Shown in pieces: positions 46,401 through 64,000 of a stretch of 64,000 bases of DNA. The stretch covers positions 160,001-224,000 of the forward strand of contig CBDDIJ010000005.1 in assembly GCA_965228855.1 (NCBI GenBank), read 5' to 3'. Position numbers and translations under genes: made by a program. This DNA comes from Candidatus Obscuribacterales bacterium (lineage in GTDB: Bacteria; Cyanobacteriota; Vampirovibrionia; Obscuribacterales; Obscuribacteraceae). The notes beneath the pieces are model-generated. The model saw only the letters and a program-made list of their open reading frames with translations, made no database searches and had not been told where the DNA came from. Each line of letters begins with the position of its first letter. The stretch's first letter is position 1.

Positions 46401-46448
46401 ATCGGGACGACAGGATTCGAACCTGCGACCTATTGCTCCCAAAGCAAT
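46401..46448 (-). repeat. att core copy 1: 3' part of tRNA-Pro(TGG), from the anticodon arm to the acceptor end
   Basis: Minus strand ATTGC-TTTGGGA-GCAAT AGGTC GCAGG-TTCGAAT-CCTGT CGTCCCGA; no D-arm or 5' acceptor strand upstream. Confidence 0.92.
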
Positions 46449-46621
46449 AAATCCCCACAAAATCGGGGTTTGAAAGAGTTGGAAGAAATATGAACGAATT
46501 ACCCAAAAGTCCTACCCTGTCTGTATAATCAACCTTAAGAGGTTTGAACGAACTTGAACAAAGTTGAATTCACTCCTCTACGCAGCCTCTACATTTTCAG
46601 GTTTGTAGAGAAGAGGTGCGG

Positions 46622-47880
46622 ATGAAGGTAAAGATCAACAAAAGCTTCGTGGAGAAAGTCGCTCACCCGGAAAGCGGACAGGTGTTCTACCGTGATACAG
46701 CTTTGCCAGCTTCGCGCTTCGCGTTACAGCCGGCTCGAAAACTTACATAGTCGAAAAAGTGGTTAAAGAAACAGAAGAGAAACTGCCGTTACACGATTGG
46801 GAAACACCCGGCAATTTCAGCAGAGTCTGCGCGCAGGCGAGTCGAAGAAAAGTTAGAAGAAGTGGCGGACGGCATCCATCTCAACGAACGAGACAGGGAC
46901 GAACAGAAGAAAGAAGAATCTGCGGCATTAACGCTAGGGCAGGTGTGGGACGCATATCAGCGAGACCGCAACTTGCGACCGGCGACCATTAAGGTATACG
47001 GCATTGCGCTAAGGCTCTGCTTCTCGGATTGGCTTGACCAGCCCATAACAACCATAACTAAGGATGCGGTGGTACAACGCCACAGCGAATTACTGAGCAG
47101 GGTTGGACCACGAAGCAGCCAGTCTGGAGCCAAGGCGCATACACACCAGGCAATGCGGGTTCTTAGATCACTACTGAACTATACCGGCGTTGTGTACGAA
47201 GACGAAGAAGGCAAGCCTCTCTTGCCGGATAACCCAGTCAAGCGATTAACACAGGCAAAATTATGGCAGCCCTAAAGCCGCGCAAAGACTTTATAAAACG
47301 CCATCAGCTTCCGCGTTGGTACAAAGCCGTCACAAAATTGAAGAATCCGGTAATTCGCGACTTCCTGCTCTTGTGCCTGTTCACAGGACTGCGAAGAACT
47401 GAAGCAACTCAATTGCGCTGGGCGGATATTGATATGGAAGGCAAGACACTCCGTATCCCCCCTGAGCGAACCAAGAACCACGAAGAACACGTGCTTCCTC
47501 TATCAGATTTCCTCTGCAAGCTGCTAGATGAGCGAATTAGGCAAGTCGGCAATCCCTTTGTTTTTCCCGGCAAGGGTGGAACCGGTCACCTTATCGAGAT
47601 GAAACGCGCCATCACCAACGTGACAAAAGCATCTGGCGTGACATTCAAGACTCACTATCTGCGTCGGACATTTATCACGATCGCCGAAGGAATCGACATT
47701 CCCCACTATGCGCTAAAGAAACTACTCAACCACAAAACAAACGACAGCACATCCTCATACAATTAGCTCGACGAAGAGCGGCTTCGTGAGCCGATGCAAA
47801 GAATCACTAATGCGATTCTAGAATTCTCGAGAAAAGAGACTGAGCCTACAGTCAAGAATATCGAGGTCGACGTCAGCTAA
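46622..47880 (+). pseudogene. Frameshifted P4-like tyrosine integrase with arm-binding domain
   Basis: GAGGTG RBS; MKVKINKSFVE..FYRD..FALRVT; LFTGLRRTE, TKN, HYLRRT, LLNH; frameshifts near 46710, 46780 and 47270, and an in-frame TAG at 47764. Confidence 0.9.
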
Positions 47881-47908
47881 TTTCAATTAGTTGCGCGTCG
47901 GAACTCTT

Positions 47909-48070
47909 TTACTGCTCAGGCTCCAAAATCTTCCGCAGTTCTTCTAGCGCTTCCGGTGTAAAAGCCAACTCAAAGCTCTTTTGGGAAACTTCGTCGCCCA
48001 CTTCCATACACAAGGTTTCTTCGTCCCATTCCCATCTGACTATTCTGTCGATATCAATTATTCGTTTCAT
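47909..48070 (-). CDS. Small acidic hypothetical protein (53 aa, not in the ORF track)
   Basis: GGAG upstream; MKRIIDIDRIVRWEWDEETLCMEVGDEVSQKSFELAFTPEALEELRKILEPEQ. Confidence 0.45.
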   Translation of the reverse strand: MKRIIDIDRIVRWEWDEETLCMEVGDEVSQKSFELAFTPEALEELRKILEPEQ

Positions 48071-48797
48071 GCTCATTCTCCGGGTCGGTATTACACTCTA
48101 AGCGGAGGATAGATTTCTGTGACTGTTGAATTCAACACGGCGCCGGCAAGGGAGGCAATCGCCCTCGGTCGCAGCAGCGAGTATAGCTCAGAGCAGATGA
48201 GTAAACTTAAAGACTAAATACACCGACAGGCAAATTGGATATTCGCTGAGAGTATTTTTGTCCTACGGCGAATTGCTTTTGTGCAGGGATCGTGATACCG
48301 ATAGGATATACTCCAAGAAGCGCGAAAGCCGCATCTGCTGCGGCTTTTACCCTGGTCAACGCTTGACGGTTCGTCGTGCGTTCCTGTAGATTGAAGGGTG
48401 CAAAAAGAATCAAGCCCTCGTAGCATAATAGGACAATGTGCCCGGTCTCGAAGCTGGGGAGATGAAGGTCCGAATCCTTCCGGGGCAATTCTTTTTGCTC
48501 GCGTTATAACGTGCAACAGCATAACTTTCGCTCGAAGCGAATGCAAGCAATTATTTAAGAAAACACTATGTCGTTGCACTCCAATCTGTATATCGCAATG
48601 ACATAAAGCCACGAACTCATGCGGCTTTTCAAACTTGACTAAAGATCAAATTTGCTTAAGTTTATTGGTCGGCACTAATACGATTCACCGGACAGATCCA
48701 AACGAATTCGCAATTAAGAAGAAGTTCGCTCGCTTGGTTTCAAACTGCATAACACGATTTAGATTCAATGAACGATGGCAAACAAAGTGAGGTGGAT

Positions 48798-49202
48798 ATG
48801 AATGACGATCAAAAATTGATTTGCGCTCAGGAATTCGTGCTCGTTGATAGCGAGGGAACGCCGCGCGGACACTGGGGAATTGACAACGGTGGACAAGCCG
48901 CGATGACTTTTTATGACCGCAATGGCAAAGCAAGAATGATTTCTGGGGCCGGCAGAGACGGTGTCGCCGTCATTCGCCTTAATGCGGCCGATGAATCTCC
49001 TACTGCAATTTTAACTGTTGATGCGGTGGGTGATTTCCGATTTGCTTGCTTTGACAAGAGTGGGAACAATCGATATCAACTAACTGTTCGTGGTGATGGC
49101 GCGGCAATTATGAGGCTTGGCTCTGATAAGCCGGATGTACTTCTGGCTGCTGCAGACGGTACTGGTCAGATTTTTATCAATGGTACTAAATACGGCGATT
49201 AG
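48798..49202 (+). CDS. Hypothetical beta-rich repeat protein
   Basis: GAGGTG RBS; repeated (L/F)xD..G..R units. Confidence 0.7.
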   Translation: MNDDQKLICAQEFVLVDSEGTPRGHWGIDNGGQAAMTFYDRNGKARMISGAGRDGVAVIRLNAADESPTAILTVDAVGDFRFACFDKSGNNRYQLTVRGDGAAIMRLGSDKPDVLLAAADGTGQIFINGTKYGD

Positions 49203-49282
49203 CGCCGTCGGATATTCAGCGCAGGCAATTCCTTCACTACCATGGTAGATTTGATCGTTTCCTTATTTAGCGGAGCGGACTT

Positions 49283-49723
49283 ATGCGTTATTTAAAACTC
49301 CATCATGCTCTGACCTTAGCAGTTGTTTTGTCTTTATCGTCCGCAAATGCTCAGCAGCCCAGTAAGAAGCCGCTTAGCCTCCAAGATGCCGAAGCTGAGC
49401 GTATCAGCATGGATCTCATTGTGCACAACAGCGCTGCAAGGTTGGTGTCGACGACAAAAGGCACAGATCAATACAACCCGAATGACAATACTATGGATCT
49501 TCTCGCGGACACCTATCTCAAGGCAGGTCGATACAGGCTCCCTTCTAAGGATATTCTGCGAAGCGCTATTGAGGACATGAAAGATGGCGAAGCATTGGCA
49601 AAGTCGACTTATCAATCGATTGACATGAACATGCGAGCCACGGCGAAATTGGAAGCGCTGCAGGTCGCGCAGAACGGTAGGATGATTGAACTATTGGAGT
49701 ACATTGCGGCGCGGACAAAGTAG
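49283..49723 (+). CDS. Hypothetical exported protein
   Basis: GGAG RBS; signal peptide ending SSANA. Confidence 0.75.
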   Translation: MRYLKLHHALTLAVVLSLSSANAQQPSKKPLSLQDAEAERISMDLIVHNSAARLVSTTKGTDQYNPNDNTMDLLADTYLKAGRYRLPSKDILRSAIEDMKDGEALAKSTYQSIDMNMRATAKLEALQVAQNGRMIELLEYIAARTK

Positions 49724-49827
49724 CGACCACAGCACCATATGCGGTGCGAGCCAAGTGGAAAGCGTGTTTTTTTTGTACTGGCGCGCGAATTTTGGAAGGC
49801 TTGGAATTTTCGTCAAGTGCTCGAACA

Positions 49828-49850
49828 AATTTACCAAGCCTTGGTAAATT
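49828..49850. promoter_or_regulatory. Perfect inverted repeat, candidate operator
   Basis: AATTTACCAAG-C-CTTGGTAAATT, ~100 bp upstream of the small ORF and second integrase. Confidence 0.5.
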
Positions 49851-49954
49851 GTGCTTCTAGACACGTTCTTCGTGTTCCTGTAGATTGGATTTTAGGTTAA
49901 AACAGCCGGTGCCATCACTGGCACCTCAGTTCGTTTTTGCGTGAGGTTTTAGAG

Positions 49955-50137
49955 ATGACTGTAGTTGACTTTGAGCAGTACGTGAAACTCCGCCGGAAAG
50001 AAACTTGGATGGAGTACTCGGATGAGCAGAGAAAAAAATATGATGCATTCAAGCGACGACGAAAACAGTTCGAGCGTAACCGGCGGAAGGATGACGAAGG
50101 AATCGACTTCGAAGGCGACTTGTCGGAGGTTGACTGA
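49955..50137 (+). CDS. Small charged hypothetical protein
   Basis: GAGG RBS; 60 aa; stop lies 1 bp before the second integrase ATG. Confidence 0.5.
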   Translation: MTVVDFEQYVKLRRKETWMEYSDEQRKKYDAFKRRRKQFERNRRKDDEGIDFEGDLSEVD

Positions 50138-50138
50138 T

Positions 50139-50890
50139 ATGCCTACACTCGACGAGTTGTGGTGTCGCTACCTAGAAGGGCACGCCAAGCCACATTTGAA
50201 GACTTGGCGAAACTTGGAGCGTTGCTTCAATCCCTATTTCGATACTCTTCGCGACCGAGATTCGTTGTCCATAAAACGGTACGAAGTGCAACACTGGCAT
50301 ACGCAAATTGGGCAGGAGATCGGCTGGACAACGGCGAACCGTGCATTTCAGTTACTCCGCTCGATTTACTACAAGGCGATCGACTGGGAACTGATTCCGA
50401 ATCACAATCCGACCGTCCGCGTGAAATGTAAAACGCTGCAGCCTCGAGAACGGTTCCTTCAACCAGAAGAGTTGTCGCGGTTCTTCTCGTCGTGCTCGAC
50501 TTTGCGCTATGCCACCACGCGCGACTTCTTCTTGATGTGCCTATTCACGGGCCAGCGTGCCGGCAATGTACGCAATATGCGCTGGGACCAGATAAGCTTT
50601 GAACTAGCGTTATGGTCAATTCCGAACACAAAGAATGGCACCAGTCACAAATTGCCGTTGGTTCCAGAAGCGATGGCGACTCTAAAAGCTCGTCGAAGCT
50701 TGAGCAAAGTCTGGGTGTTCCCTGGTCGAACAACGAATCAGGGGCAATCGTCTGTTGAAAGACCACTTGGAAAAAATGGCTGTCGAGACGCCTGGCTGCA
50801 CTGGTGAACCGTGCCGACCTGCCGGATCTCAGGCTTCACGATTTAAGGCGAACTCATGCAAGCTACGGCTTCTTGGGTGATAAGAACTAG
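50139..50890 (+). pseudogene. Second tyrosine recombinase, frameshifted and C-terminally truncated
   Basis: GGAGG RBS; TANR..LLRSIY, RERFL, LFTGQR, TKNG; frameshift near 50750-50800; DLRLHDLRRTHASY then stop, without the downstream LGH and catalytic Tyr region. Confidence 0.85.
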
Positions 50891-51322
50891 GTCGCGAAAC
50901 TCACCAAACCACAAAAGCCAGTCAGAATGTGCTTTTTCGAGGAGTACCATCGACCCACCGAGGCGCGAGTCTTGAAGTGATATCCATAGGGCAAGACACT
51001 CTGTATCGAGCTCCGCAAGCCGTCTTGCAGAGTGCCGAAGTTCCTGACGGCATCGGGCCGTGTGCAGATTCGTAACCGATGGCACCTCGGTAACTATTTT
51101 TCGAAGGCAGGGGTTAAGCGAGTTGAAGAGCCGCCCAAGCGCCTCGCTGAAATCAGCCGCCATCGGCTCTGGCTCTGGTCCAGCTGGCATGTTTCTGTAC
51201 AAGGCGTTTGATTTTGAATCTATCGCTCCAATGATCGCCGGCGCAGTATCAAGTAATGCTGCAACTCGAACAAGCGTTGTCTTCGCGGCCAGTAAATTTT
51301 CAATCTCGGTCGTCATATTCAT
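50843..51322 (-). CDS. Hypothetical protein
   Basis: Purine-rich RBS; downstream of the excisionase-like gene. Confidence 0.55.
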   Translation of the reverse strand: MNMTTEIENLLAAKTTLVRVAALLDTAPAIIGAIDSKSNALYRNMPAGPEPEPMAADFSEALGRLFNSLNPCLRKIVTEVPSVTNLHTARCRQELRHSARRLAELDTECLALWISLQDSRLGGSMVLLEKAHSDWLLWFGEFRDLVLITQEAVACMSSP

Positions 51323-51335
51323 CCCCTCTCTCACC

Positions 51336-51359
51336 GCACCGAATGCGGTGCTTTTTTTT
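51336..51359 (+). terminator. Intrinsic terminator on the plus strand, antisense to the xis-like operon
   Basis: GCACCG-AATG-CGGTGC followed by eight T. Confidence 0.65.
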
Positions 51360-51645
51360 AGTCAAAACTGATTTGCCCTTCGCGCTGAAGTCGAGCGCAT
51401 TTGCGCCAATCGTAACGAACGTTCCGGCCTAGAGCCTCATACGGAAATCCGGCCTTGCGCCAGCGATCTCTTTGAAGCGAATCCACGCTTCGTCCAACAA
51501 ACATGGACAACGGCACTTCACTTACCATCCGCGGTAACGGATCATTCGGACCAATTCCAAGGACGGCGCGCATAGCGAGCGCGTCTTCGAAGTTCTCCGC
51601 ATTTTCGGTCATGCATGCGGGGGCTGATTCAAATTTCCTTTGCAT
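51358..51645 (-). CDS. Excisionase/AlpA-like HTH DNA-binding protein
   Basis: GGAGGA RBS; SE..LS..VG.S..SLQRDR.R..G.PY..LGRNVRY, typical of recombination directionality factors. Confidence 0.75.
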   Translation of the reverse strand: MQRKFESAPACMTENAENFEDALAMRAVLGIGPNDPLPRMVSEVPLSMFVGRSVDSLQRDRWRKAGFPYEALGRNVRYDWRKCARLQREGQISFD

Positions 51646-51821
51646 AAAAAATATCCTCCAACGACAGGGGTTAGTCAGCGTCTTCAAACGCTTACCTACC
51701 TATGCCTGCCTTGTGCAAATTGTTTTTGCCGTCGTTCGGTGTTGTTCCAATTACACCAAGGAGAGGAACATCAAGAACGCCCCGAATTACCTTGATTTAT
51801 TGAGGTTAATTGAGGGCGGGC

Positions 51822-52682
51822 TTATTTCTGCCACCACCGGCCCATTACGAGTCGATGAGAGTCATTCATCTTTTTGTTCTTGTATTCTTCAACCGTCCGG
51901 GCGATATGTGTACGCGAGAAATCCAAGCGCTTTCGCTTTTTTCCATCACCACGCTGTTCGTATTCAACGCCCAGTACATAAACATTACTTTGTGCCCAAT
52001 CCATCAACTCGTTGGCGCAAATTACAAACTCGCCATTCTTACTCGCTTTGGGCTGCCTATTTTTAATCTCAAACAACTTCCACAGATCAGACAAAAACCA
52101 CCAAAGCGCGAGGCTTTCCGGTTCCCCTGTCCGCACTTGCGGTTTGGCGGACAACGCAATGGACGCTCGCTCGTCAAATAATTGGAAAAGATACTCTCGA
52201 TCACGCAGCAGATTTTGCCAATGCTGTCGAAAGTCATCTGCGAATTGTTTCCAGAATAAATCATCAGGTATTCCGACGAAAACAGACTCAGCTTCAATAA
52301 TCGACTCCTCAAGTTTTTTTGCTTGAGTGCGAATTTGCTGCAAGGCTATCGCTCGCTCATCTTCATTATCGTCGGCAGCATCTGAGGACACTGTGCAAAC
52401 CTCATCTTGCCTATCATCGACGTAACGACCAAGCAGCCTTCTGGACTGCTTGGCTCCGTCTGTTCCGAGTAGCCTCTGAATCTTTTCCTCAAGATCCTTT
52501 GGTGTGGTATTTATCTGTCCAGCCCGATTCGGAAACTTCTCTGAAATCTTGTCTAGTTCAAGACGGCTCCACATATCCGCACTAACCTTTTCTCGATCAA
52601 TGCTGTTCCATTTGATGCGCGTGCATCCATCCTGCTCCACGACTTGCACGACAACGCCATCGCCAAGTGTGACTTCGCCCAT
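51822..52682 (-). CDS. Hypothetical protein
   Basis: ~286-aa ORF between the right att and the xis-like gene. Confidence 0.65.
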   Translation of the reverse strand: MGEVTLGDGVVVQVVEQDGCTRIKWNSIDREKVSADMWSRLELDKISEKFPNRAGQINTTPKDLEEKIQRLLGTDGAKQSRRLLGRYVDDRQDEVCTVSSDAADDNEDERAIALQQIRTQAKKLEESIIEAESVFVGIPDDLFWKQFADDFRQHWQNLLRDREYLFQLFDERASIALSAKPQVRTGEPESLALWWFLSDLWKLFEIKNRQPKASKNGEFVICANELMDWAQSNVYVLGVEYEQRGDGKKRKRLDFSRTHIARTVEEYKNKKMNDSHRLVMGRWWQK

Positions 52683-52805
52683 TTCTCTCAAAGTTTGAAC
52701 TCCAGACTAAAGGAACTCACTTTGATTATATTTGAAACAATCCGAATCTGTTTGAGCCGAGTTCTCTACACCGCCTCTACAAAATCGTGTCTAAGTTCTG
52801 AAACT

Positions 52806-52853
52806 ATCGGGACGACAGGATTTGAACCTGCGACCTATTGCTCCCAAAGCAAT
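52806..52853 (-). repeat. att core copy 2: 3' part of tRNA-Pro(TGG)
   Basis: Identical to 46401-46448 except one T-loop base (TTCAAAT); 5' half absent. Confidence 0.92.
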
Positions 52854-54757: not shown

Positions 54758-56455
54758 ATGAGCGATGATCCGTCCAAGCCCAGAAGAACGGAAGTGCCTG
54801 CTGAAATCGGCGGCACTGACAAGGGTTTGGAAAGCGCTCCAGATGTGCCTGCCGTCAGAAATGCGAGCGTGGACGTCGTTAAGTCTGCTCAACGACTCAA
54901 CCAAGATAACTGGCGCAGTAATGACGGACACTTTGCTATCACAAACGGCGATGAAGTCCTAGCAAGCCAGAATGTTAATGAGTCGAGAAAAGCTCTCATA
55001 GAGAATGTTTCAGAGACTGGAACTCAGCTATCACTCGAAGCCCGAAGCAACCCCGCCCTTGAACCCGTTGCGCTGCTACGGAAGTATGCAGACAAATTGC
55101 CAGAAGGCGAAGAGAAGAGAAGTCTTGTCGAACTCTCCCGGAAGCAAGGTGCTGAGCTTTCACCTTCGATTCGTGAGAGGCTCGAAGGCAGAAGATATGC
55201 CATAGCCAGTAGTGAATTAGATCAAGGTGGAATCCATCACGCGTTGACACCAAATGAGGTGCCACCTGGAGGACTGGGATCTGCATTTCTACACTCAAAA
55301 CCAGAGGTACAGAATGCGCTAATCAAGGCACTTCAAGACTGTCCCGAGATTATGAGTAATCGCTTGGACGTCGCCATCTCGAACGGTGTATATAAAGGAG
55401 TACGAAATTGGACTGACGTGGCCGTCGCGCTTGGATTGACAGTCTGGAGGACTATCGAATTCACCTCCGACGTTATGACGAACAACCCACGTGCCCTGAA
55501 AACTGGCGAGAAAGTTGGCAGCGACATTGGCTCGGCAATAGTTGGGGGAGTGCGAATCTTCGAATTCGCAGACCTGTATTCTCAGAACATTCAGGAGACA
55601 GGGGACTACGAAAAACCGATTCGTGACATCGTCTGGTTAAAAGAACAGCTCAACGCAAAATGGAACCGGATGTCGGAATTTGAGAAGCAGGAATGCATCG
55701 CGGAAAGCACAACAAACCTTGCTCTAGGAGGTCTTCCGACATGGTCTCTCGCAAGGTCATCTCACTTTACCCGTGCAATTGAAGATCTCGGTCAGACAGC
55801 AGCCAAACTTGGTGGTAAGTCTCAGCAAGAGCTTGCAATAGCAATACGGCGCATGATCGATAAGCTTGGTCCGCAAGTCAAAGCGGTGGATGCCGCAACC
55901 GGATTAGAAATCGAAGTTCCTGCTGGCCGGTTTGAAGACCTCTCAATGAGGATGGTCAAACACAAGGGTGACGGAAATGATACTCCGAAGCAGAGAAGGA
56001 GCTACGGTGAGGGCGACGAGATAGTGCGGTCCCCTCACAAGTTTAAGGAGCTTCCTAAGACAGTCGAGGTTCTTCTGCACAATCCCGTCAAATTCGTTTC
56101 GGACAGAATTGACGAACTCAAATCTCAAATTCCAAAGAAAGCGATGGATTTTGGAACAACGATGTCATCAGCAATAGCAAAAGACGCCGACGGTAAATTA
56201 CACGTCTTGGTGAGCACTAATGAGGAAACTGACTATCTCCGCAAGGGAGTGGAGCTTAAACCTTGGGAAAACTTCGTAACCGGAGAAACAGGTGACGCAG
56301 AAATGAGGATAAAACAATTCGCGGAGAATCACGGACTCAAGCTTATTGGAATGGGTGCAACCCGTCCCATATGCGAAGCGTGTGAATCGTGCCTTCGACC
56401 ACTCGGAGTAAAGTTCGCTACAATTCTGAAGTCAGAGGTCAGGAAGAAGCCATGA
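54758..56455 (+). CDS. Polymorphic toxin-like protein with C-terminal deaminase-fold domain
   Basis: C-terminal GDAEMRI...GMGATRPICEAC resembles the [H]AE...PxCxxC pattern of toxin deaminases; ATGA overlap with a small downstream gene. Confidence 0.75.
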   Translation: MSDDPSKPRRTEVPAEIGGTDKGLESAPDVPAVRNASVDVVKSAQRLNQDNWRSNDGHFAITNGDEVLASQNVNESRKALIENVSETGTQLSLEARSNPALEPVALLRKYADKLPEGEEKRSLVELSRKQGAELSPSIRERLEGRRYAIASSELDQGGIHHALTPNEVPPGGLGSAFLHSKPEVQNALIKALQDCPEIMSNRLDVAISNGVYKGVRNWTDVAVALGLTVWRTIEFTSDVMTNNPRALKTGEKVGSDIGSAIVGGVRIFEFADLYSQNIQETGDYEKPIRDIVWLKEQLNAKWNRMSEFEKQECIAESTTNLALGGLPTWSLARSSHFTRAIEDLGQTAAKLGGKSQQELAIAIRRMIDKLGPQVKAVDAATGLEIEVPAGRFEDLSMRMVKHKGDGNDTPKQRRSYGEGDEIVRSPHKFKELPKTVEVLLHNPVKFVSDRIDELKSQIPKKAMDFGTTMSSAIAKDADGKLHVLVSTNEETDYLRKGVELKPWENFVTGETGDAEMRIKQFAENHGLKLIGMGATRPICEACESCLRPLGVKFATILKSEVRKKP

Positions 56456-56892
56456 ATAGACTGGAATCCGTAGCGCCCGAAACAGCTATTGAAGTCGGCC
56501 GTGCTGGTCCTCAAAAGCAAAGACTCGCAGCTATTGAAGCATGCCGACATGCAATTGAGGCAAGCAAAACGAGCGATGAAATCGTCATCCGTGCGTTCGA
56601 TTTACTCTGTCAAGATGGCGTGCTTCCAGCGAAGGTAAGACATGCGCTCGACGATGTAGCAGACGAACTTGATGAAAAATACATGGAGATTTACCAGAAA
56701 ACTCCAGACGCGAGGCACGACTATATTGGCTACTTCAGGCGCGCCAGGACGATCTGCGCAGTCTCCGCTGCCGGCGGCGAGGATCCACATCAAGCTGCGA
56801 TTGATGCAATTTACGAAGCGCGCCAGACGGTTGACGATCAAGACGGTCTCTGCCAGGTCCTATCAGCTTACCTTCGCCGAAAGGCTGACTGA
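56452..56892 (+). CDS. Probable cognate immunity protein
   Basis: ATGA-coupled to the toxin; 146-aa helical protein LDEKY..Y...F.RAR...A...AIYEA. Confidence 0.75.
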   Translation: MNRLESVAPETAIEVGRAGPQKQRLAAIEACRHAIEASKTSDEIVIRAFDLLCQDGVLPAKVRHALDDVADELDEKYMEIYQKTPDARHDYIGYFRRARTICAVSAAGGEDPHQAAIDAIYEARQTVDDQDGLCQVLSAYLRRKAD

Positions 56893-56899
56893 ATTTCGA

Positions 56900-57799
56900 T
56901 TATTCAGAAGGATTATCATTAGTCAGAATGCGTCGCTTCTTAAACGCGCCCATTTTTTCAGTAAATTCCGTTGCGAATGCAACATAGGGATCGGTATTCT
57001 CGATATAAATGGCGTTTACCTGTCCAGGTCCGTAAGAAAGCATTTGACTCTTTAGCTCTCGGCCAATCTGATGTTTTGACCCAGCCCACCTGACGATTCT
57101 CTCGGTAAAGACCTGTTTGGGTAATTGGGCACGCAAATGCAATCCATCCGGAAATACAATATGCGAACTCGCCTCGGAGGACCAAAACTCACTTACACTG
57201 AAAATACTTACGCCTTCGTCCACTAGGCGCTCGGCAGCGCTCACAAACGGCTCTGCTCGCCCTTCGTCAGTCTCTCGATTATGTTCTTCAAACTGCCGAA
57301 GATGTTCCGCTCGCTCATCGGCAGTGCGCACAAAAGTATGCGCCTCGCCCACAAGCACAACTACTTTGGACGGAAGCACGCTCATTATTGTGTCGCACAT
57401 GAATTGTTCGCGTCCGACCTCTGGGCTGTCGGAGTTAGGATCCAAACTGTTGATAAAGAGAAGTTCGCCACCATGTCGGCACCATGTTTTTATTGCCTCT
57501 AACAGCAATTCATCAAAACATTCGAACTGCGAAATCGACTGCTCCCGAAGCTGCTCTTGCAAGTCTACCAAAGGACAATCGCCCCTTACATAACGATCAA
57601 ACGATGTAGTCAGATTCGGTAATAGCTCAAGAGCCAGATACTCAAACCCTTTCCCCCTGAGCAAGGGAAGTAGAGTTAGGACAATTTTTCTAAACTCAGT
57701 CTTAGCTGAATGGGTCTCTCCAAGTAAAACTACGTTTGCGTTTTCCGAGAGAATCTGTTCAACAAGTTGATACTCATCAATGCCACCTTCGGTGCTCAT
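56900..57799 (-). CDS. ChaN/EreA(Tiki)-fold protein
   Basis: VVLLGETH, YLALE, REQFM, VVLVGEAH; ATGA overlap with the upstream ARH gene. Confidence 0.72.
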   Translation of the reverse strand: MSTEGGIDEYQLVEQILSENANVVLLGETHSAKTEFRKIVLTLLPLLRGKGFEYLALELLPNLTTSFDRYVRGDCPLVDLQEQLREQSISQFECFDELLLEAIKTWCRHGGELLFINSLDPNSDSPEVGREQFMCDTIMSVLPSKVVVLVGEAHTFVRTADERAEHLRQFEEHNRETDEGRAEPFVSAAERLVDEGVSIFSVSEFWSSEASSHIVFPDGLHLRAQLPKQVFTERIVRWAGSKHQIGRELKSQMLSYGPGQVNAIYIENTDPYVAFATEFTEKMGAFKKRRILTNDNPSE

Positions 57800-59598
57800 A
57801 TCAAATGCTCCGTCCTTGAGCCGCTGCTCTTTGGAGTCTTCAATCCACGCCTGCGTAAAATCCTTATATTGTATCCATCGAAGTCATCGAACGTGAATGC
57901 TCCTCTCTTGTCGAGCAAATTCTCACGAATATCAATCATGAGACCGAATTTTTGAACTACTCTATAAGCTTTGTGGACATCATCGGTATAAAGACAGAGT
58001 ATTGGTGAAGTCAACGAGCGACGATCTCTTAGTGAGTCAAGCTGCTCTAAGACGAGTGCACCAAAATCGATGGATTCCCTATCCCGACTGACAACCCGAA
58101 ATCCCAGATCTGTGAACAATCTTGCTGAGCGCTCCAGATTTTGCACGAGAAGTGTCACTCGCAAATCCGGTTCTCGTAATGGTCTATCCGGAGCTGTCTC
58201 GTATACCGCGGATTGACGCTGCTCCAGTTGATTGTCCTCGTCTATTTTCAGAGGCAGAGGCTTCGGACTTGCCTTCTTCAGCCTAGTAATGAAGATCGTC
58301 TGCCCGTCTTCAGTTCTTAGTCTACACACAGATCCTTTAACATCTTCTTTGAGCATTTCCACATCTTCGAAAGATTCGACTATGGCAGACCTAGTGTCCG
58401 GAAGTGTGACCTCGCGTTGTTGCGTTGCTGCAAATATTTCACGCCTCAGCGAAGCAAGCGTGACTTGCCGAACTTCTGGAATCGCTTTACGAACTTGTCG
58501 CCGACTAAGGTCTAATGCAATCTGGCGAAGATATGGACGGTCCTGCACAGAATCTAGGCACTCGGTGATCCAATCTGTTCCAAAGACAGCACCAGCAAGT
58601 GATCCGACCATGGCTCCAAGTGTGTCGGTATCTGCATCTTCTAAGAAACAAGCGCGACGAAGACCGGCGTTCGGATTGCCACCACTTTTCGAAACCAAAA
58701 ACAGCGCACCAGCTGTGGTGACGGTGCCCGCGCCAGAACGCTCGCTATCCGAACATCCCAAATGACGAAGAACTTCATTCTCAGTCTGAAGTCCCGATTC
58801 CAATTCGCGTTGAATGTAAGTCAACATTTCCTCCAACTCGTGGACGGTGCTCGTCCATTCATCCAAGTACGAGAGGGTCTTATTTGAATTCGCAGCGTGG
58901 TACCATTCCTCGAACTCAACACACTCTGGTAAGTTTGACCAAACGTCCTTAGCAGCTAGAGTTTGCCTAACTAATTCACCGAACTCTAGTGTCTTCCGTA
59001 GGCGAAGGGCGTACCAACCTGCGTACGCGAAAGCCAGAGCTCCTATCAGCGCCCTCGGATGCCCATGAGTAGTGATGCCATTTCTGAAAACGTCTCTTCC
59101 CAATTCTGCAAAACCATCCGAATCTGCATGCCATACACAGTGTGGAAAGATGCGCATCGCAACGCCATTAGCTCCAGCTTCGAAGTATTTCCGACGGTCT
59201 GATTCGGGTCTATTTAAGGACCAGGGAGGGATATTTAAGCACCATGCTTTAATTGCACTCTTTACGGCTCTTCCGCCGCCTCTCTCGTAAAGACTGAACG
59301 TTGGAAATTCTTGTTTCGTGAGAAACGAAAACCACTCGTCTCCAGTGAACAGACTTCTAGCCGTACTTAGAACGAGCTGTGTGTCGTCGCTGTAGCATCC
59401 AGCACCGATTGATTCTAGATGTGCGTAGCTGTAACCACCAGCTCGACGCCGCCATGCTCGAAATGGTGCCTCCGGTTTATGTGGCAGAAAATTCACAAGC
59501 CCCGAACGATTTTCTTGAGGCCAGCCCAGCGCATCACCGACAGCCCCCCCAACTATGGCGCCTTCCGCTTTCTTTGCTAGGGATAACATCATCGGCAT
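57796..59598 (-). CDS. ADP-ribosylglycohydrolase (DraG/ARH family) with C-terminal VOC/glyoxalase-like domain
   Basis: GDALG, YSDDTQL, NGVAMR, TTHGHP, DTDTLGAMVGSL; C-terminal LLVQNLERSARLF..LGF...FDDFDGY.I; TAATG overlap with darT. Confidence 0.9.
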   Translation of the reverse strand: MPMMLSLAKKAEGAIVGGAVGDALGWPQENRSGLVNFLPHKPEAPFRAWRRRAGGYSYAHLESIGAGCYSDDTQLVLSTARSLFTGDEWFSFLTKQEFPTFSLYERGGGRAVKSAIKAWCLNIPPWSLNRPESDRRKYFEAGANGVAMRIFPHCVWHADSDGFAELGRDVFRNGITTHGHPRALIGALAFAYAGWYALRLRKTLEFGELVRQTLAAKDVWSNLPECVEFEEWYHAANSNKTLSYLDEWTSTVHELEEMLTYIQRELESGLQTENEVLRHLGCSDSERSGAGTVTTAGALFLVSKSGGNPNAGLRRACFLEDADTDTLGAMVGSLAGAVFGTDWITECLDSVQDRPYLRQIALDLSRRQVRKAIPEVRQVTLASLRREIFAATQQREVTLPDTRSAIVESFEDVEMLKEDVKGSVCRLRTEDGQTIFITRLKKASPKPLPLKIDEDNQLEQRQSAVYETAPDRPLREPDLRVTLLVQNLERSARLFTDLGFRVVSRDRESIDFGALVLEQLDSLRDRRSLTSPILCLYTDDVHKAYRVVQKFGLMIDIRENLLDKRGAFTFDDFDGYNIRILRRRGLKTPKSSGSRTEHLI

Positions 59599-60287
59599 TA
59601 CGGCGTCCAAGTTGACTCTCGAGGTGCAGAACCATTCCAAATACAGTTTCGGAGTGCGTCCTTGTCGAACATTTCTCCACAAATCACAAATCGAAGGTCT
59701 GTACAGTCTATTTTCGCATACTCAAACCTTACAAGCTGATCTTGTGCATGGGCTTTTGTCGGAAACACGACTCCAGTCAAATCAGTTATTGCAATTTTGT
59801 CTTTAACCATTACTTCACACTGCATGTCGGTTGGGCATGATGAAAGGTGCGTTGCAGAGCGGCTAAAAGAACCAACTCTACTAGCATAAAGACCAGCGAG
59901 TGCAGGCAAGCTGGCAGGTATAAGATTCGCTCCGGAGCCCTTTGCCGCGTTGTGGGGGCAATACAGCGTGTCATTTAGACCCACGTAGTCCGCTCGAATT
60001 AGCAGGATAACCCAATCGCGGAAAAGTAAGTCCTCTTTTTGCTTCTTTAGAAAGTAATGCACATTCGGGTATTGAATAGATGTTGAAATGTGCCCTTTTC
60101 GACCATCCCACCGCTCAATATCAATCTGGGTGAAAAGGGCGCGTTCATCTCTTTCCAGCATCTCTGTTGCGAGTATTCCGATTTTTCCATCGATTAAATG
60201 CATTAAATTGCGCACGGGAGTGAAATGGCACAGTCTTGAAACTCCTTTTCGCTGAACCTCCTTCAGGAGACCTTCATCTAATGTCAT
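59598..60287 (-). CDS. darT: DarT (DUF4433) DNA ADP-ribosyltransferase, DarT1-like
   Basis: LCHFT..NL, D.ER.DG, S.QYPN, DWVIL, P.NAA, TD.QCEV (catalytic Glu). Confidence 0.88.
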   Translation of the reverse strand: MTLDEGLLKEVQRKGVSRLCHFTPVRNLMHLIDGKIGILATEMLERDERALFTQIDIERWDGRKGHISTSIQYPNVHYFLKKQKEDLLFRDWVILLIRADYVGLNDTLYCPHNAAKGSGANLIPASLPALAGLYASRVGSFSRSATHLSSCPTDMQCEVMVKDKIAITDLTGVVFPTKAHAQDQLVRFEYAKIDCTDLRFVICGEMFDKDALRNCIWNGSAPRESTWTP

Positions 60288-61695
60288 ATTTAAACCTGCT
60301 AACGGTGGAAGAGTCTTTCGGAATTAGCACCGTTCTCTCCTTCGAAAAGGTCATTGTAAGTTCAGTCTTTGCTCGTGTAATTGCAATGTAGAAAAGGCGA
60401 GCATCATGCGCTTCAGCGTCGACCTGACCGAACTGGTTTACGGTACGATCGCTAGGCAAGCGATCTTTTGAGCAATAAGGCATGAACACTGCATCAAATT
60501 CGAGTCCTTGCGACGCTTGATACATACCTACAAAAATTCCATTGCTTTGGACCCAACATGGCATTGTTCGATCAATTTGAGTAAAGCCGCACTTCCGTTG
60601 ACGTAAGCTGCGGACCACAACGTTTACATCATCCTTGGTTCTACACAAGATTGCTACGGTTTTCGAATTGGCATCTGCAATTGCTCGCGAAACGACGTAC
60701 TCTGTTTCGGACGCGTAGTCTCGACAGCGGACGACCCGAGGCTTTGAACCAGCCGCTAAGACATTTTTAGGGGCTACTAAATCAGGCTCGAGGTAGAACG
60801 GCATCAACGCGAGTTCGAGTGCAAACGCGGTAATCTCTGGACTATTTCTATAGTTCTGCTCAAACTTCCAAACGTTTCGCTCCAGAACATCAAGGTTTGC
60901 GGACTTCCAATTTGTTCGGGTTCTAACTCCACGCGTCTGCTGCACAAGGTCGCCAAAGAATGTCAGGCTTCCATCCGCTGGAATTGCTGCAGCCAGTGAA
61001 CGCAACATTTCTGGCGAGAACTGTTGTCCTTCATCGATGACGATGTGGCGGTAGAATCGGGATGTTGAATCATCAGCAAACGCATCTGACACCAGAGTCG
61101 CAATTTCAAGGTAGTCTGTTTCAGTGCGGTAGCGGGTTAACCTTTGTTCTCGATACCTTTCAAGAATCGAGTAGATTTCGCTTCTGAGTGCGGAAGTCAA
61201 TCCTACTTCACGCCCCATTCTATCTGCGTCTAGGTAGTCCTGCTTCGACCGAATTCCATTGTCGACTATCCAGTCAATTTCATCGAGAACAAATTGAGTA
61301 TCAAGTCCTGATAATCTTGAGGTAGTGCGCGTCTTTTTGAAAGTACTGATTAGTGATACTAGAAGCGTCTCGCGTTTGTCATTATCCAACGTCCTGCGTA
61401 CCGGTCTTTTTCGCGAATTTAGATATCCGAAGGCAAATTTGTGGTAGGTGCGAACATCTAAAGGGTTTTTACTTTGTCGCGCGTAGTGATCGAGATACTT
61501 TGTTAAGACATTATTGAATGTGACAAGAAGCGTTCTTCCTGAAGTGGAAGTTCTAGCGTCTGAAAGATATCCCGCTCGAAGTAGTGCCAATAAGGTCTTG
61601 CCGCTACCTGCGGTGCCAAGCACAACACTGTGGCCAAGCGGATAAAGGCTCAGCACATCAATCTGTCGACCTTGAGGTTTGGGTAATCCCTGCAA
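60274..61695 (-). CDS. UvrD-like superfamily 1 helicase
   Basis: GTAGSGKT, VTFN, TYH, IVIDEGQ, FGD..Q, NYRN, GLEFDAV, YIAITRAK; overlaps the darT start by 14 bp. Confidence 0.92.
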   Translation of the reverse strand: MQGLPKPQGRQIDVLSLYPLGHSVVLGTAGSGKTLLALLRAGYLSDARTSTSGRTLLVTFNNVLTKYLDHYARQSKNPLDVRTYHKFAFGYLNSRKRPVRRTLDNDKRETLLVSLISTFKKTRTTSRLSGLDTQFVLDEIDWIVDNGIRSKQDYLDADRMGREVGLTSALRSEIYSILERYREQRLTRYRTETDYLEIATLVSDAFADDSTSRFYRHIVIDEGQQFSPEMLRSLAAAIPADGSLTFFGDLVQQTRGVRTRTNWKSANLDVLERNVWKFEQNYRNSPEITAFALELALMPFYLEPDLVAPKNVLAAGSKPRVVRCRDYASETEYVVSRAIADANSKTVAILCRTKDDVNVVVRSLRQRKCGFTQIDRTMPCWVQSNGIFVGMYQASQGLEFDAVFMPYCSKDRLPSDRTVNQFGQVDAEAHDARLFYIAITRAKTELTMTFSKERTVLIPKDSSTVSRFKYDIR

Positions 61696-61808
61696 GTTGC
61701 CACGTACTCTCTGGATTTTGGGTTGAAACAGGTCACAATAACGAGGACATGCTTCGCGGTCAATCCCCCAGAGGGATGATTAGTTTTGAGCGCGTTTCTG
61801 CACTGGTA

Positions 61809-62549
61809 TCAACCAAGGTTGAATTGGATTCCCGCTGGATGCTGATTTGATACCTCCCAGCCGACTGCGTCTCCCTCTCGGTTGAAGGATAGAAACAGAC
61901 CAAAGCGGTAGATCGGAGACTTTACCGGTTCGCTCGATTCGGTAAATAGCAGCAGTTTTGTCCAATCAAGGAGAAGGCAGGCCGCATTGGTGAAATTTAC
62001 CTTCATCTCGATAATGAGTACGTTACGGCAATTACATCCGCGGGTGTGAATCACGACGTCGGGAACGACCCTTCGGTACCTTCCTTGTGAGGTCTCGATT
62101 GCAATGTCTATTCTCGCCCGTTCAAAGTGCTTCGCAGTAACTTTGAACGGAATTTTTCCTCTAAGACTGTTGAGCGATTTCATCATGTAATCTCGTGAGA
62201 GTTGCTTCGTCAAAGAGCCCGCCCGGTTGTACTCACAGTCTACCGACCAGCCGGTGTACTTCAGTTGGTCAAAGAGAATGCGAGCGAATTGATGCGCGAC
62301 CGCACGCTCACCCACTTCGAGGTAGAACAAGTCCTTTTGCTCTTTTAGCTCCAGAACCGTGTCTCGAAGTATAGCGCGAAGCGAGCGTTTGTCGTTTGAC
62401 GTAATGATCTCTTGGTCCAATGTTTGAGGAATATCGGCAAGATTCCTCTTTGTGCAGTTGTCGCAACTAGGCATGGTTTTAATTTTTTCCATTCGGTTGA
62501 AATCCCTATGCTGAAAATCCAATTGTTCTGTTGCGAGACATGAGACCAA
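61809..62549 (-). CDS. PD-(D/E)XK-like nuclease-fold protein
   Basis: ER..AH, VDCEYNR, VPDVVIH.RG...NVLIIEMK; start uncertain. Confidence 0.7.
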   Translation of the reverse strand: MVSCLATEQLDFQHRDFNRMEKIKTMPSCDNCTKRNLADIPQTLDQEIITSNDKRSLRAILRDTVLELKEQKDLFYLEVGERAVAHQFARILFDQLKYTGWSVDCEYNRAGSLTKQLSRDYMMKSLNSLRGKIPFKVTAKHFERARIDIAIETSQGRYRRVVPDVVIHTRGCNCRNVLIIEMKVNFTNAACLLLDWTKLLLFTESSEPVKSPIYRFGLFLSFNREGDAVGWEVSNQHPAGIQFNLG

Positions 62550-62594
62550 CAGAATTTGCTCCGATCTCTGATACTTCTGACACCAGATCTGATG

Positions 62595-64000
62595 CTAAAT
62601 ACCATTCGACACTCTTATAAAGCGTACAAGGCGTTCTAACTGCGACTGCAAGTCGAGAATGGATAGATCCGCAGGCGCTTGTGTGACGACACGTGCAATC
62701 GCAACCTTGTCCGCCTGTTTTTTCCCTCCGTCCACTTTCATAGTGAGTGCTCGCTCGAACGGTTTTCCAATATTCGGCAATTCTGTTTCTTCTCCGTGAA
62801 CCTTCCTCGCAGCTGAGTCCAGCAGCTTTGGTTCAATATAGTTTTCGATTTCGCGTCCCGCGGATATCCAAGCGAAACCTGGTCCCCTGTCAAACTCACC
62901 TTGAACACGCAACTTAGTTTCGTTAATTGGTTCGGTAGCACTCGACTTATCACGATCTATCACGATGACACCATAGCTGTTTAACCTCCGAAGCGAAATA
63001 AAGTCACTTACCGGCTCGGTCGATGATAACTCGGCACCTTGTGCATTCTCAATATTGGTCAACTCATTGGCGGTGAAGTGACTCAGTAATTTGCCGCCAT
63101 ATGTCATAACCGAATAGTGCAACCCATAAGTGAGACTTGGGTCTAACGCGTTAAGCCAGTGCCTCAGGTAGATACGATCGCTTGGACCTTCCACCCATAT
63201 AACACAGTTTGCCTGCATCAAATCGGATGGGCGGTGCCCTAGAATTCTGCAGATTGATGACTTCGCCTTTGCGGTGTCTGCATGTTCAACTTCCGAATGA
63301 CCGTTCGAATCAATCCGGACATGAAATACACTGGAGTCAGCGATATCCAGAGCTTGAGATGCGTGGGTAGTTATGAAATATTGGTTGTCCGTTTGCTTGG
63401 ACAGAAACTCTAAGAGCGCACGCAGCAAACCCGGATGCAAATGAATTTCCGGCTCCTCAATACAGACGATGCTCTTTTCCCATTGCGTCACAGCGGACGC
63501 CATTAGAACGACTTGATGGATTCCGCGACCCATATGATCTAGTGGAAGCACCTTGCCGTCCAAGTGAACACTAATCTCAAGCTGATTGCTAGCGATCTCC
63601 AATTGAGCAGAGCCGTTCCCCGTTACGCTCTTCACAAACATATTGATTTGAGAGAACTTTTCCTTTGACTGGCGATACTTCGCTGGATCCTGAAAGGACG
63701 GATTCTGAAGTCCCGCGAGATATTTGATAACCCCCGCGCCGGATGGATTGAACTCACTGGCGGAACTATCAATTCTTCTCAGATCGGGGATGGAGTGAAC
63801 GTTTACACTCGCTTCAATTTCGAATAATCGAATGAAATCTTTTAGAATTGTGGAAATATTACCTTCCGGGTTGTGCCGAACGGAAAACGCACCATTGGTA
63901 ACTGCATGAGCTAGTAGTTCCCAATCGTCATCTGTAAATTGCTGATAAAAGTAGTCCTGCAATTCTTTGACGATTGATTCGTCAAAGCGATTACCCAGGT
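62595..64000 (-). CDS. OLD-family ATP-dependent nuclease (ABC ATPase + TOPRIM), 5' end outside the window
   Basis: Signature MGRG, Walker B IEEPEIHLHP, FITTH, TOPRIM VIWVEGPSD and IDRD; frame open to the window edge. Confidence 0.9.
   Translation of the reverse strand, partial: LGNRFDESIVKELQDYFYQQFTDDDWELLAHAVTNGAFSVRHNPEGNISTILKDFIRLFEIEASVNVHSIPDLRRIDSSASEFNPSGAGVIKYLAGLQNPSFQDPAKYRQSKEKFSQINMFVKSVTGNGSAQLEIASNQLEISVHLDGKVLPLDHMGRGIHQVVLMASAVTQWEKSIVCIEEPEIHLHPGLLRALLEFLSKQTDNQYFITTHASQALDIADSSVFHVRIDSNGHSEVEHADTAKAKSSICRILGHRPSDLMQANCVIWVEGPSDRIYLRHWLNALDPSLTYGLHYSVMTYGGKLLSHFTANELTNIENAQGAELSSTEPVSDFISLRRLNSYGVIVIDRDKSSATEPINETKLRVQGEFDRGPGFAWISAGREIENYIEPKLLDSAARKVHGEETELPNIGKPFERALTMKVDGGKKQADKVAIARVVTQAPADLSILDLQSQLERLVRFIRVSNGI

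Follow-up and report, generated by a model that had tools for sequence, protein, structure and literature searches.

Gene content of the locus

We analyzed a stretch of 64,000 nucleotides from Candidatus Obscuribacterales bacterium (assembly GCA_965228855.1, contig CBDDIJ010000005.1, positions 160,001 to 224,000), hereafter the window, in which four consecutive minus-strand genes encode a UvrD/Rep-type helicase, a DarT-like DNA ADP-ribosyltransferase, a hydrolase of the ADP-ribosylglycohydrolase (ARH) fold, and a ChaN/TIKI-like protein (Table 1). An earlier note on this DNA had described the four genes as physically coupled, and both the coordinates and the junctions are as it claimed: the helicase gene and darT overlap by 14 bp, darT passes into the ARH gene through TAATG, and the latter into the ChaN-like gene through ATGA. 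The motifs it had listed are also all present in the sequence, namely the DarT1 set in DarT (HFTPVRNL, DIERWDG, YPN, DWVIL, PHNAA, and TDMQCE) and the metal-site motifs SDDT (residues 70–73) and DTDT (323–326) in the hydrolase. Pfam matched UvrD_C (2.3e-20) and UvrD-helicase (6e-11) in the helicase, DarT (1.3e-7; family PF14487) in the darT product, and ADP_ribosyl_GH (PF03747, 1.2e-34) in the hydrolase. Two public contigs, which may be the source of the window itself, span positions 56,600–62,000 without interruption and with zero mismatched letters.

Table 1. Coordinates of the features discussed, in positions of the window.
Feature	Positions	Strand	Details
darH, UvrD/Rep-type (SF1A) helicase without subdomain 2B	61695-60274	(-)	473 aa, TTG start
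darT, DarT1-lineage DNA ADP-ribosyltransferase	60287-59598	(-)	229 aa
darG3, ARH/DraG-fold hydrolase with two extra C-terminal domains	59598-57796	(-)	600 aa from the ATG in TAATG
ChaN/TIKI-like protein, likely passenger	57799-56900	(-)	299 aa
Copy of the tRNA-Pro(TGG) 3' end, likely att boundary of the island	52801-52852	(-)	52 nt, 98% identical
Remnant-like copy of the first 15 ChaN-like codons	53126-53170	(-)	45 nt, 84%; translation and genome BLAST; also present in the two public contigs
PD-Lambda-3 A-like upstream neighbor, outside the conserved core	61809-62549	(-)	PADLOC PD-Lambda-3_A 4.3e-13 over residues 67-118
OLD/GajA-like ATPase-TOPRIM gene, outside the conserved core	62595-64000, start past the window end	(-)	594 aa; Pfam AAA_15 5.5e-20, TOPRIM 0.0017

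An island of about 37 kb contains the locus; it is bounded by a tRNA-Pro(TGG) gene (G000:C5:249,881-249,954) and a copy of the 3' end of that tRNA, with a GC content of 48.2% against 51.4% for the genome. The tRNA-associated island that had been proposed is thus real, with the tRNA itself beyond the window. The claim that neither a NADAR nor a macrodomain gene accompanies darT also held. A NADAR profile found no DarT1-type NADAR in the island (PF22397 was present at 5/5 control DarT1 loci), and no macrodomain was found near the locus, the single macrodomain match of the genome being about 1 Mb away; a NADAR search of the whole genome matched nothing either, a weak negative because it detected 0 of 14 controls. 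PADLOC 2.0 and NCBIfam named no system for DarT or the hydrolase, a silence that we attribute to the dates of the libraries and not to novelty; the PADLOC run flagged the PD-Lambda-3 A-like gene upstream and left DarT and the hydrolase unmatched, so the system is not visible there. We found no relatives of DarT in a scan of viral contigs and none of the hydrolase in 50,697 phage records. Word-indexed protein searches, which are insensitive, returned two matches for DarT and one for the ChaN-like protein, each count including the query.

Conservation of the gene order

We assembled 84 related loci, comprising the best 80 of the 106 relatives detected with a DarT alignment in GTDB genomes and four distinct top plasmid matches of 13. 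The retrieval patterns included HFT and YPN, and did not include the positions of R59, D61, N113, and E158. A helicase match upstream and an ARH match downstream of DarT, on the same strand, were present in 84/84 loci, in about 10 of which one gene is split or broken by a contig end. These loci span cyanobacteria, alpha-, beta-, gamma-, and deltaproteobacteria, actinomycetes, planctomycetes, acidobacteria, and others, so that the helicase-DUF4433-ARH synteny, whose survey had been suggested, is conserved across phyla. Five weaker plasmid matches that we inspected are ordinary DarT1-NADAR pairs. One locus (L067) carries three DarT-like and two helicase-like open reading frames (ORFs) in 10.6 kb, perhaps tandem copies of the three-gene unit. 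A DarG3 profile matched nothing at 1e-30 in the 106 genomes of the same order that we searched besides the host, which fits a recent arrival on the island.

Relationship to DarHTG

The earlier note had presented the locus as a candidate new anti-phage system, a third class of DarT module that pairs an SF1 helicase with an eraser of the ARH fold. The class, and probably the anti-phage role, stand; the novelty does not, as the arrangement matches a system that is already named and tested, DarHTG or Liu-DS3 (Liu et al., 2026; PMC13069673), an outcome that the note itself had listed as a refutation. In the main text of that report, DarHTG consists of a UvrD-like helicase without subdomain 2B (DarH), a DarT, and the antitoxin DarG3, which resembles archaeal and eukaryotic ADP-ribosylglycohydrolases; it guards Escherichia coli from T4, T7, T5, and SSL_2009a, loses protection when the DarT site or the ATP site is mutated, and could not be cloned with a mutant DarG3 (PMC13069673). 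Its frequency in E. coli is given there as "less than 0.5%", and the words guanine, glyoxalase, VOC, winged, ChaN, and TIKI do not occur in the main text.

A tblastn search with the hydrolase led us to a locus on a Salmonella plasmid that carries genes for a helicase, a DUF4433 protein, and an ARH, and this DNA is present in 21 of 5,426 complete E. coli genomes. This frequency (0.39%) fits the published one, and we take the E. coli helicase-DarT-ARH locus, which encodes WP_000699006.1, WP_000151475.1, and WP_001087212.1 and is the sole one of its kind that we found in E. coli, to be probably Liu-DS3. The gene order is the same in the window and at the E. coli-type locus, and profiles of the window families matched the proteins of the latter at 6e-49 (helicase), 1.8e-23 (DarT), and 2e-68 (hydrolase). 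Both sets thus share the helicase-DarT-ARH composition, a UvrD-like helicase without 2B, and an antitoxin of the ARH fold. A BLASTN search of E. coli that started from a Ralstonia member of this clade gave nothing, and is insensitive at such divergence. We conclude that the helicase, DarT, and hydrolase genes are very probably a divergent copy of DarHTG, and we name them accordingly. The two types differ in that the DarT clade of the window keeps the DarT1 motifs D.R.DG and YPN, absent from the E. coli type; in that the window hydrolase ends in a glyoxalase/VOC domain, replaced by a winged helix in some relatives, neither of which we detected in the E. coli type; and in the ChaN-like passenger downstream. 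DefensePredictor DS-32, which pairs a NADAR with a PRTase, is unrelated.

A comparison with E. coli Rep places the loss of 2B between motifs IV and V, where 223 residues of Rep separate two aligned blocks that are 51 residues apart in the window helicase. About 172 residues are missing, a gap that corresponds in size to that subdomain of Rep. The spacing from motif IV to motif V is nearly the same in the window helicase (117 aa) and in the E. coli-type DarH (120 aa). Walker A (GTAGSGKT, with K33 and T34), the DE of motif II (D221 and E222), Q253, R283, and R441 are intact.

The toxin and its predicted target base

Against the PDB, the window DarT gave a single significant match, DarT1 of E. 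coli C7 (8baq, 1.6e-12), the toxin of the DarT1-NADAR pair DarTG1. Residues R59, D61, N113, Q156, and E158 align with R52, D54, N104, Q150, and E152 of DarT1, and all five are kept in 84/84 relatives; H17, F18, T19, and S63 of DarT1 are matched in the window protein as well. DarT1 is reported to require E152, N104, M71, R52, and D54; N104, in whose place DarT2 has a histidine, holds the guanine, and D54 is a residue specific to DarT1 (PMC11543638). Four of these five residues are kept in the window DarT, which has a tyrosine in place of M71. Beyond the toxin, the locus differs from DarTG1 in lacking a NADAR partner, in whose stead it has a predicted eraser of the ARH fold, and in the helicase gene upstream. 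It resembles DarTG2, the thymidine-specific pair of DarT2 and a macrodomain DarG, in the toxin family (PF14487) and in the order of a toxin followed by a multi-domain antitoxin; it differs from it in the lack of a nearby macrodomain and in N113, which stands where DarT2 has its base-binding histidine.

For the phylogeny we used 28 DarT rows; a first quick tree had held 55, and the 27 that we dropped include its three longest branches. The DarT of the window belongs to a clade of 10 rows (support 99/98), the E. coli type to one of four (100/99), and NADAR-linked DarT1 to one of five (96/95). The three clades together are set apart from macrodomain-linked DarT (nine rows), where DarT2 belongs, at 100/99. 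The order among the three is unsettled, the grouping of the window's clade with DarT1 reaching 85/69. Given the retained guanine-binding Asn and catalytic Asp of DarT1 and the grouping with DarT1, we consider guanine the likely target of the window DarT, a prediction made from its residues and lineage.

ARH genes also follow DarT genes of more distant lineages that have no DarH (L120:2-3440 of genome G129, L123 of genome G069, and L105:3-5320 of the Nostoc plasmid NZ_CP040275.1). In L120 and L123 the DarT has 318–337 aa and is preceded by a frame of at least 478 aa on which Pfam is blank over the available part; in L105 a DarT fusion of 531 aa lies downstream of an AAA_11/AAA_12 helicase and upstream of BREX pglZ/brxL. 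The three may represent further, undescribed DarT-ARH subtypes. Two other frames, L113:1495-2661 and L115:925-2154, combine a DarT with a partial macrodomain match and are possible toxin-antitoxin fusions.

The hydrolase and its exchangeable tail

DarG3 comprises the ARH domain (residues 4–369), a small beta-rich middle domain (about 380–442), and a C-terminal glyoxalase/VOC domain (about 475–590) that had been overlooked in the earlier note. In fold searches with its structural model (mean pLDDT 88.5), the ARH domain matched MJ1187 (Z 36.5), ARH3 (Z 35.2), and ARH1 (Z 34.5), and over the set that also includes Tri1 and DraG the matches ranged from Z 32 to 36.5 at an rmsd of 2.4–3.1. MJ1187 and ARH3 at the top of the list fit the archaeal and eukaryotic matches of the DarHTG report. 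Sequence searches lean toward the arginine-specific ARH1/DraG, over ARH3, and fold searches do not separate the two. DarG3 shares the acidic metal-site motifs of these enzymes, with E29, D71, D72, D323, and D325 kept in 81–83 of the 84 relatives. It differs from the top fold matches in its two C-terminal domains, which all of them lack. The substrates described for characterized ARH/DraG members are ADP-ribose linked to protein or phosphate (PMC11833690; PMC8883491). We think it quite probable that DarG3 removes ADP-ribose from DNA catalytically.

The middle domain has no match in the Atlas, and the model of the VOC domain matched glyoxalase I (Z 11.7, rmsd 2.7, 108 aligned). Four of the 84 relatives were set aside because their hydrolase is cut or split; in the other 80, which have 60 or more residues past the ARH domain, Pfam classed the tail as glyoxalase-type in 51 and winged-helix-type in six, with no match in 23; profiles built from the Pfam-matched tails raised these to 54 VOC and 21 winged-helix tails, with five others, and neither profile matched the E. 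coli-type hydrolase. In the literature searched, which included the main text of the DarHTG report, we found no description of a VOC or winged-helix tail on DarG3. That the end domain of an antitoxin is interchangeable hints at regulation or sensing, and the tail may be a regulatory input to DarG3, an idea that we regard as rather doubtful. At a Hormoscilla locus (L035:7132-7479) the VOC domain is a separate ORF that overlaps the ARH stop codon, by natural split or frameshift.

Proposed mechanism and alternatives

We read the locus as a whole, and think it probable, as a divergent DarHTG anti-phage toxin-antitoxin module in which guanine is marked, the ARH enzyme erases the mark, and the helicase assists. 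The gene order, the homology of the three proteins, the intact catalytic residues of DarT and the hydrolase, and the loss of 2B form its basis, and the tRNA-bounded island with other defense-like genes nearby counted in its favor. In such a module, DarT would attach ADP-ribose to guanines in single-stranded DNA, and DarG3 would strip these marks in uninfected cells. DarH, loaded on replication intermediates of the phage, would expose single strands for DarT; during infection marking would outpace removal, whereupon phage replication would stall and the cell would be slowed or killed. We judge it an even question whether the helicase supplies single-stranded DNA or acts as a pure sensor. The base, the chemistry of the eraser, the role of the helicase, and the function of the tail are inferred, whereas defense, and its dependence on the DarT and ATP sites, are reported for the E. 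coli system.

Several observations weigh against this reading. Pairwise identity to the E. coli-type proteins is only 21–30% (helicase 25%, hydrolase 30%, and DarT 21% at E 0.10), and the equation of the E. coli locus with Liu-DS3 is itself inferred. The two helicase-linked DarT groups form separate clades in the best tree; a single helicase-linked clade was not rejected (p-AU 0.365). The DarT pocket is not identical to that of DarT1, as the position of M71, essential in DarT1, is Tyr in 83/84 relatives, that of K74 is Lys in 36/84, and that of Y75 is mostly Ala. In the helicase, a motif II column that is Asp in 83/83 non-gap relatives and a motif V column that is Lys in 81/81 are both Gln. 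Finally, the guanine prediction runs counter to current data, in which ADP-ribose linked to guanosine in RNA was reversed only by NADAR enzymes, and neither human ARHs nor an ARH-like enzyme from a bacterium could remove it (PMC11833690).

This failure is the main argument for a module of the same kind with another chemistry, in which DarT would act on another base, on a DNA phosphate end, or on a protein such as the helicase, hence an ARH and not a NADAR eraser. The ARH-family enzymes tested so far are reported to strip ADP-ribose from RNA phosphate ends (PMC11833690), and ARH3 to be weak on thymidine-linked ADP-ribose and inactive in a DNA context (PMC12879935). The divergence at M71 and Y75 in the lineage of the window DarT points the same way, as do the ARH partners of the more distant lineages L105, L120, and L123. 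However, the Asn that binds guanine and the Asp specific to DarT1 have not changed in any of the 84 relatives, and no protein in the PDB other than DarT1 was matched significantly. Moreover, the N2 of guanine sits in a guanidine-like group, and ARH1 and DraG cleave such bonds on arginine. We hold this other chemistry to be improbable, though the strongest of the alternatives.

The helicase departures raise a second alternative, that ATP use is uncoupled from movement on DNA and the locus is a weak or silent DarHTG relic. D225Q (motif II), Y255R (motif III), and H393Q and K396Q (motif V) all fall at nearly invariant positions. In total the helicase is off the family consensus at 10 of 86 such columns, a level (at least 10) reached by one of 74 relatives, whose median is one; DarT is off at 5 of 33, and at least five departures are found in 0/84 relatives. 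The lack of a second DarG3 in the same-order genomes would also suit a relic. Yet equally divergent helicases depart at 7, 8, 8, and 13 columns, the catalytic residues of DarT and the hydrolase are all kept, and the intact ATP-binding residues and the three open frames led us to give this alternative little weight. We had also considered D225Q and K396Q as a compensatory pair, since the motif II Asp may pair with the motif V Lys in PcrA, and dropped the idea because the literature matches listed gave it no support.

In a third alternative, the module would mainly stabilize a mobile island by addiction, with phage defense incidental, as the tRNA boundaries and the occurrence of relatives on plasmids and beside transposases and integrases would suggest. 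We find this very unlikely, since the E. coli system is reported to protect from several phages and to require its helicase (PMC13069673), and simple addiction has no need of a helicase that is kept in 84/84 loci.

The ChaN-like gene

The ChaN-like protein matched PF04187 at 1.3e-4, under the Pfam cut-off, as did 6/10 of its relatives, likewise sub-threshold; it has an Atlas neighbor at 0.91, with PF04187 on 60% of that neighbor's members. It had no sequence match in the PDB, and its single-sequence model (pLDDT 36) was too poor to use. A search of 1.84 billion representatives yielded 11 relatives with E values of 0.001 or lower, and in an alignment of 11 rows, the window protein included, the invariant positions are G27-E28-x-H30, E58, R130, and G151-x-x-H154, a possible counterpart of the TIKI/EreA metal sites. 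The earlier note had made this gene a fourth component, a claim that the survey contradicts. BLASTP, a family profile (best E 0.62), and phmmer run on 6,858 ORFs with its filters off all failed to find it in the 84 related loci, two of which have less than 200 bp past the ARH stop. Of the 106 same-order genomes, 32 match the profile, and none of these 32 has a DarG3 match. Two full-length orthologs stand alone in mobile regions, where visual inspection of the ORF lists shows integrase, recombinase, or transposase genes around them. Since it is absent from the related loci and its relatives occur without the system, we read the gene as a passenger, very likely cargo of the same island and no part of DarHTG; the 45-nt repeat of its opening codons, close to one end of the island, suggests that it has moved about independently. 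A functional four-gene system, with the ChaN/TIKI-like protein acting, for example, as a protease that cuts the antitoxin upon infection, would account for the ATGA coupling and the conserved metal-site-like motifs and is, against this record of absence, the least probable reading of all.

Neighboring genes in the island

The OLD/GajA-like gene is followed, after 45 bp, by the PD-Lambda-3 A-like gene on the strand of darH (61,809–64,000 of the window; L005:7595-9379). The former has a single weak match (1e-4) across the 84 related loci and the latter none (0/84), and the two are a candidate for a separate defense pair. Just past the window, the same island carries a four-gene cluster (L005:9906-13703) of a DprA/SLOG protein, a HAD phosphatase, a second DprA/SLOG protein, and a phosphoribosyltransferase, which resembles the ShosTA-type DprA-PRTase defense modules. 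On the plus strand at 54,758–56,892 of the window, a 565-aa ORF ending in DAE...PICEAC is overlapped by a 167-aa ORF, both blank in Pfam; the ending recalls the tips of deaminase-type polymorphic toxins, and the smaller ORF could be an immunity gene. Two giant plus-strand ORFs of 1,877 and 2,265 aa, with signal-peptide-like starts, occupy G000:C5:233,439-245,891 of the island.

The tRNA-Pro 3' end recurs at 46,401–46,447 (47 nt, 100%), and this second copy bounds a 6.4-kb tandem island (46,401–52,852) that contains a tyrosine integrase gene (50,022–50,807). It also contains an odd tRNA-like element at 48,414–48,488, the sole ARAGORN call in the window, with an odd anticodon loop; we rejected it as the tRNA of the island, which is tRNA-Pro(TGG).

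Significance

As DarHTG is already named, the locus is not a discovery in itself, and its value lies in the leads it gives on the base that is modified, on the role of an ARH as eraser, and on the job of the helicase. The probable preference for guanine and the swappable tail of the hydrolase are absent from the main text of the DarHTG report (PMC13069673). The clade might even be a distinct DarHTG subtype, with a guanine-specific DarT1-type toxin, an ARH eraser, and an interchangeable tail that serves as a plug-in sensor switching the eraser off upon infection, a combination that we consider unlikely as a whole. A modular C-terminal domain of the antitoxin, which can be deleted or swapped, would offer a handle on how the system senses infection. 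If the subtype reading is true, this would be a first case of an ARH enzyme that removes ADP-ribose from a DNA base, and the NADAR or macrodomain counter-defenses of phages might need to be matched by phage ARH enzymes.

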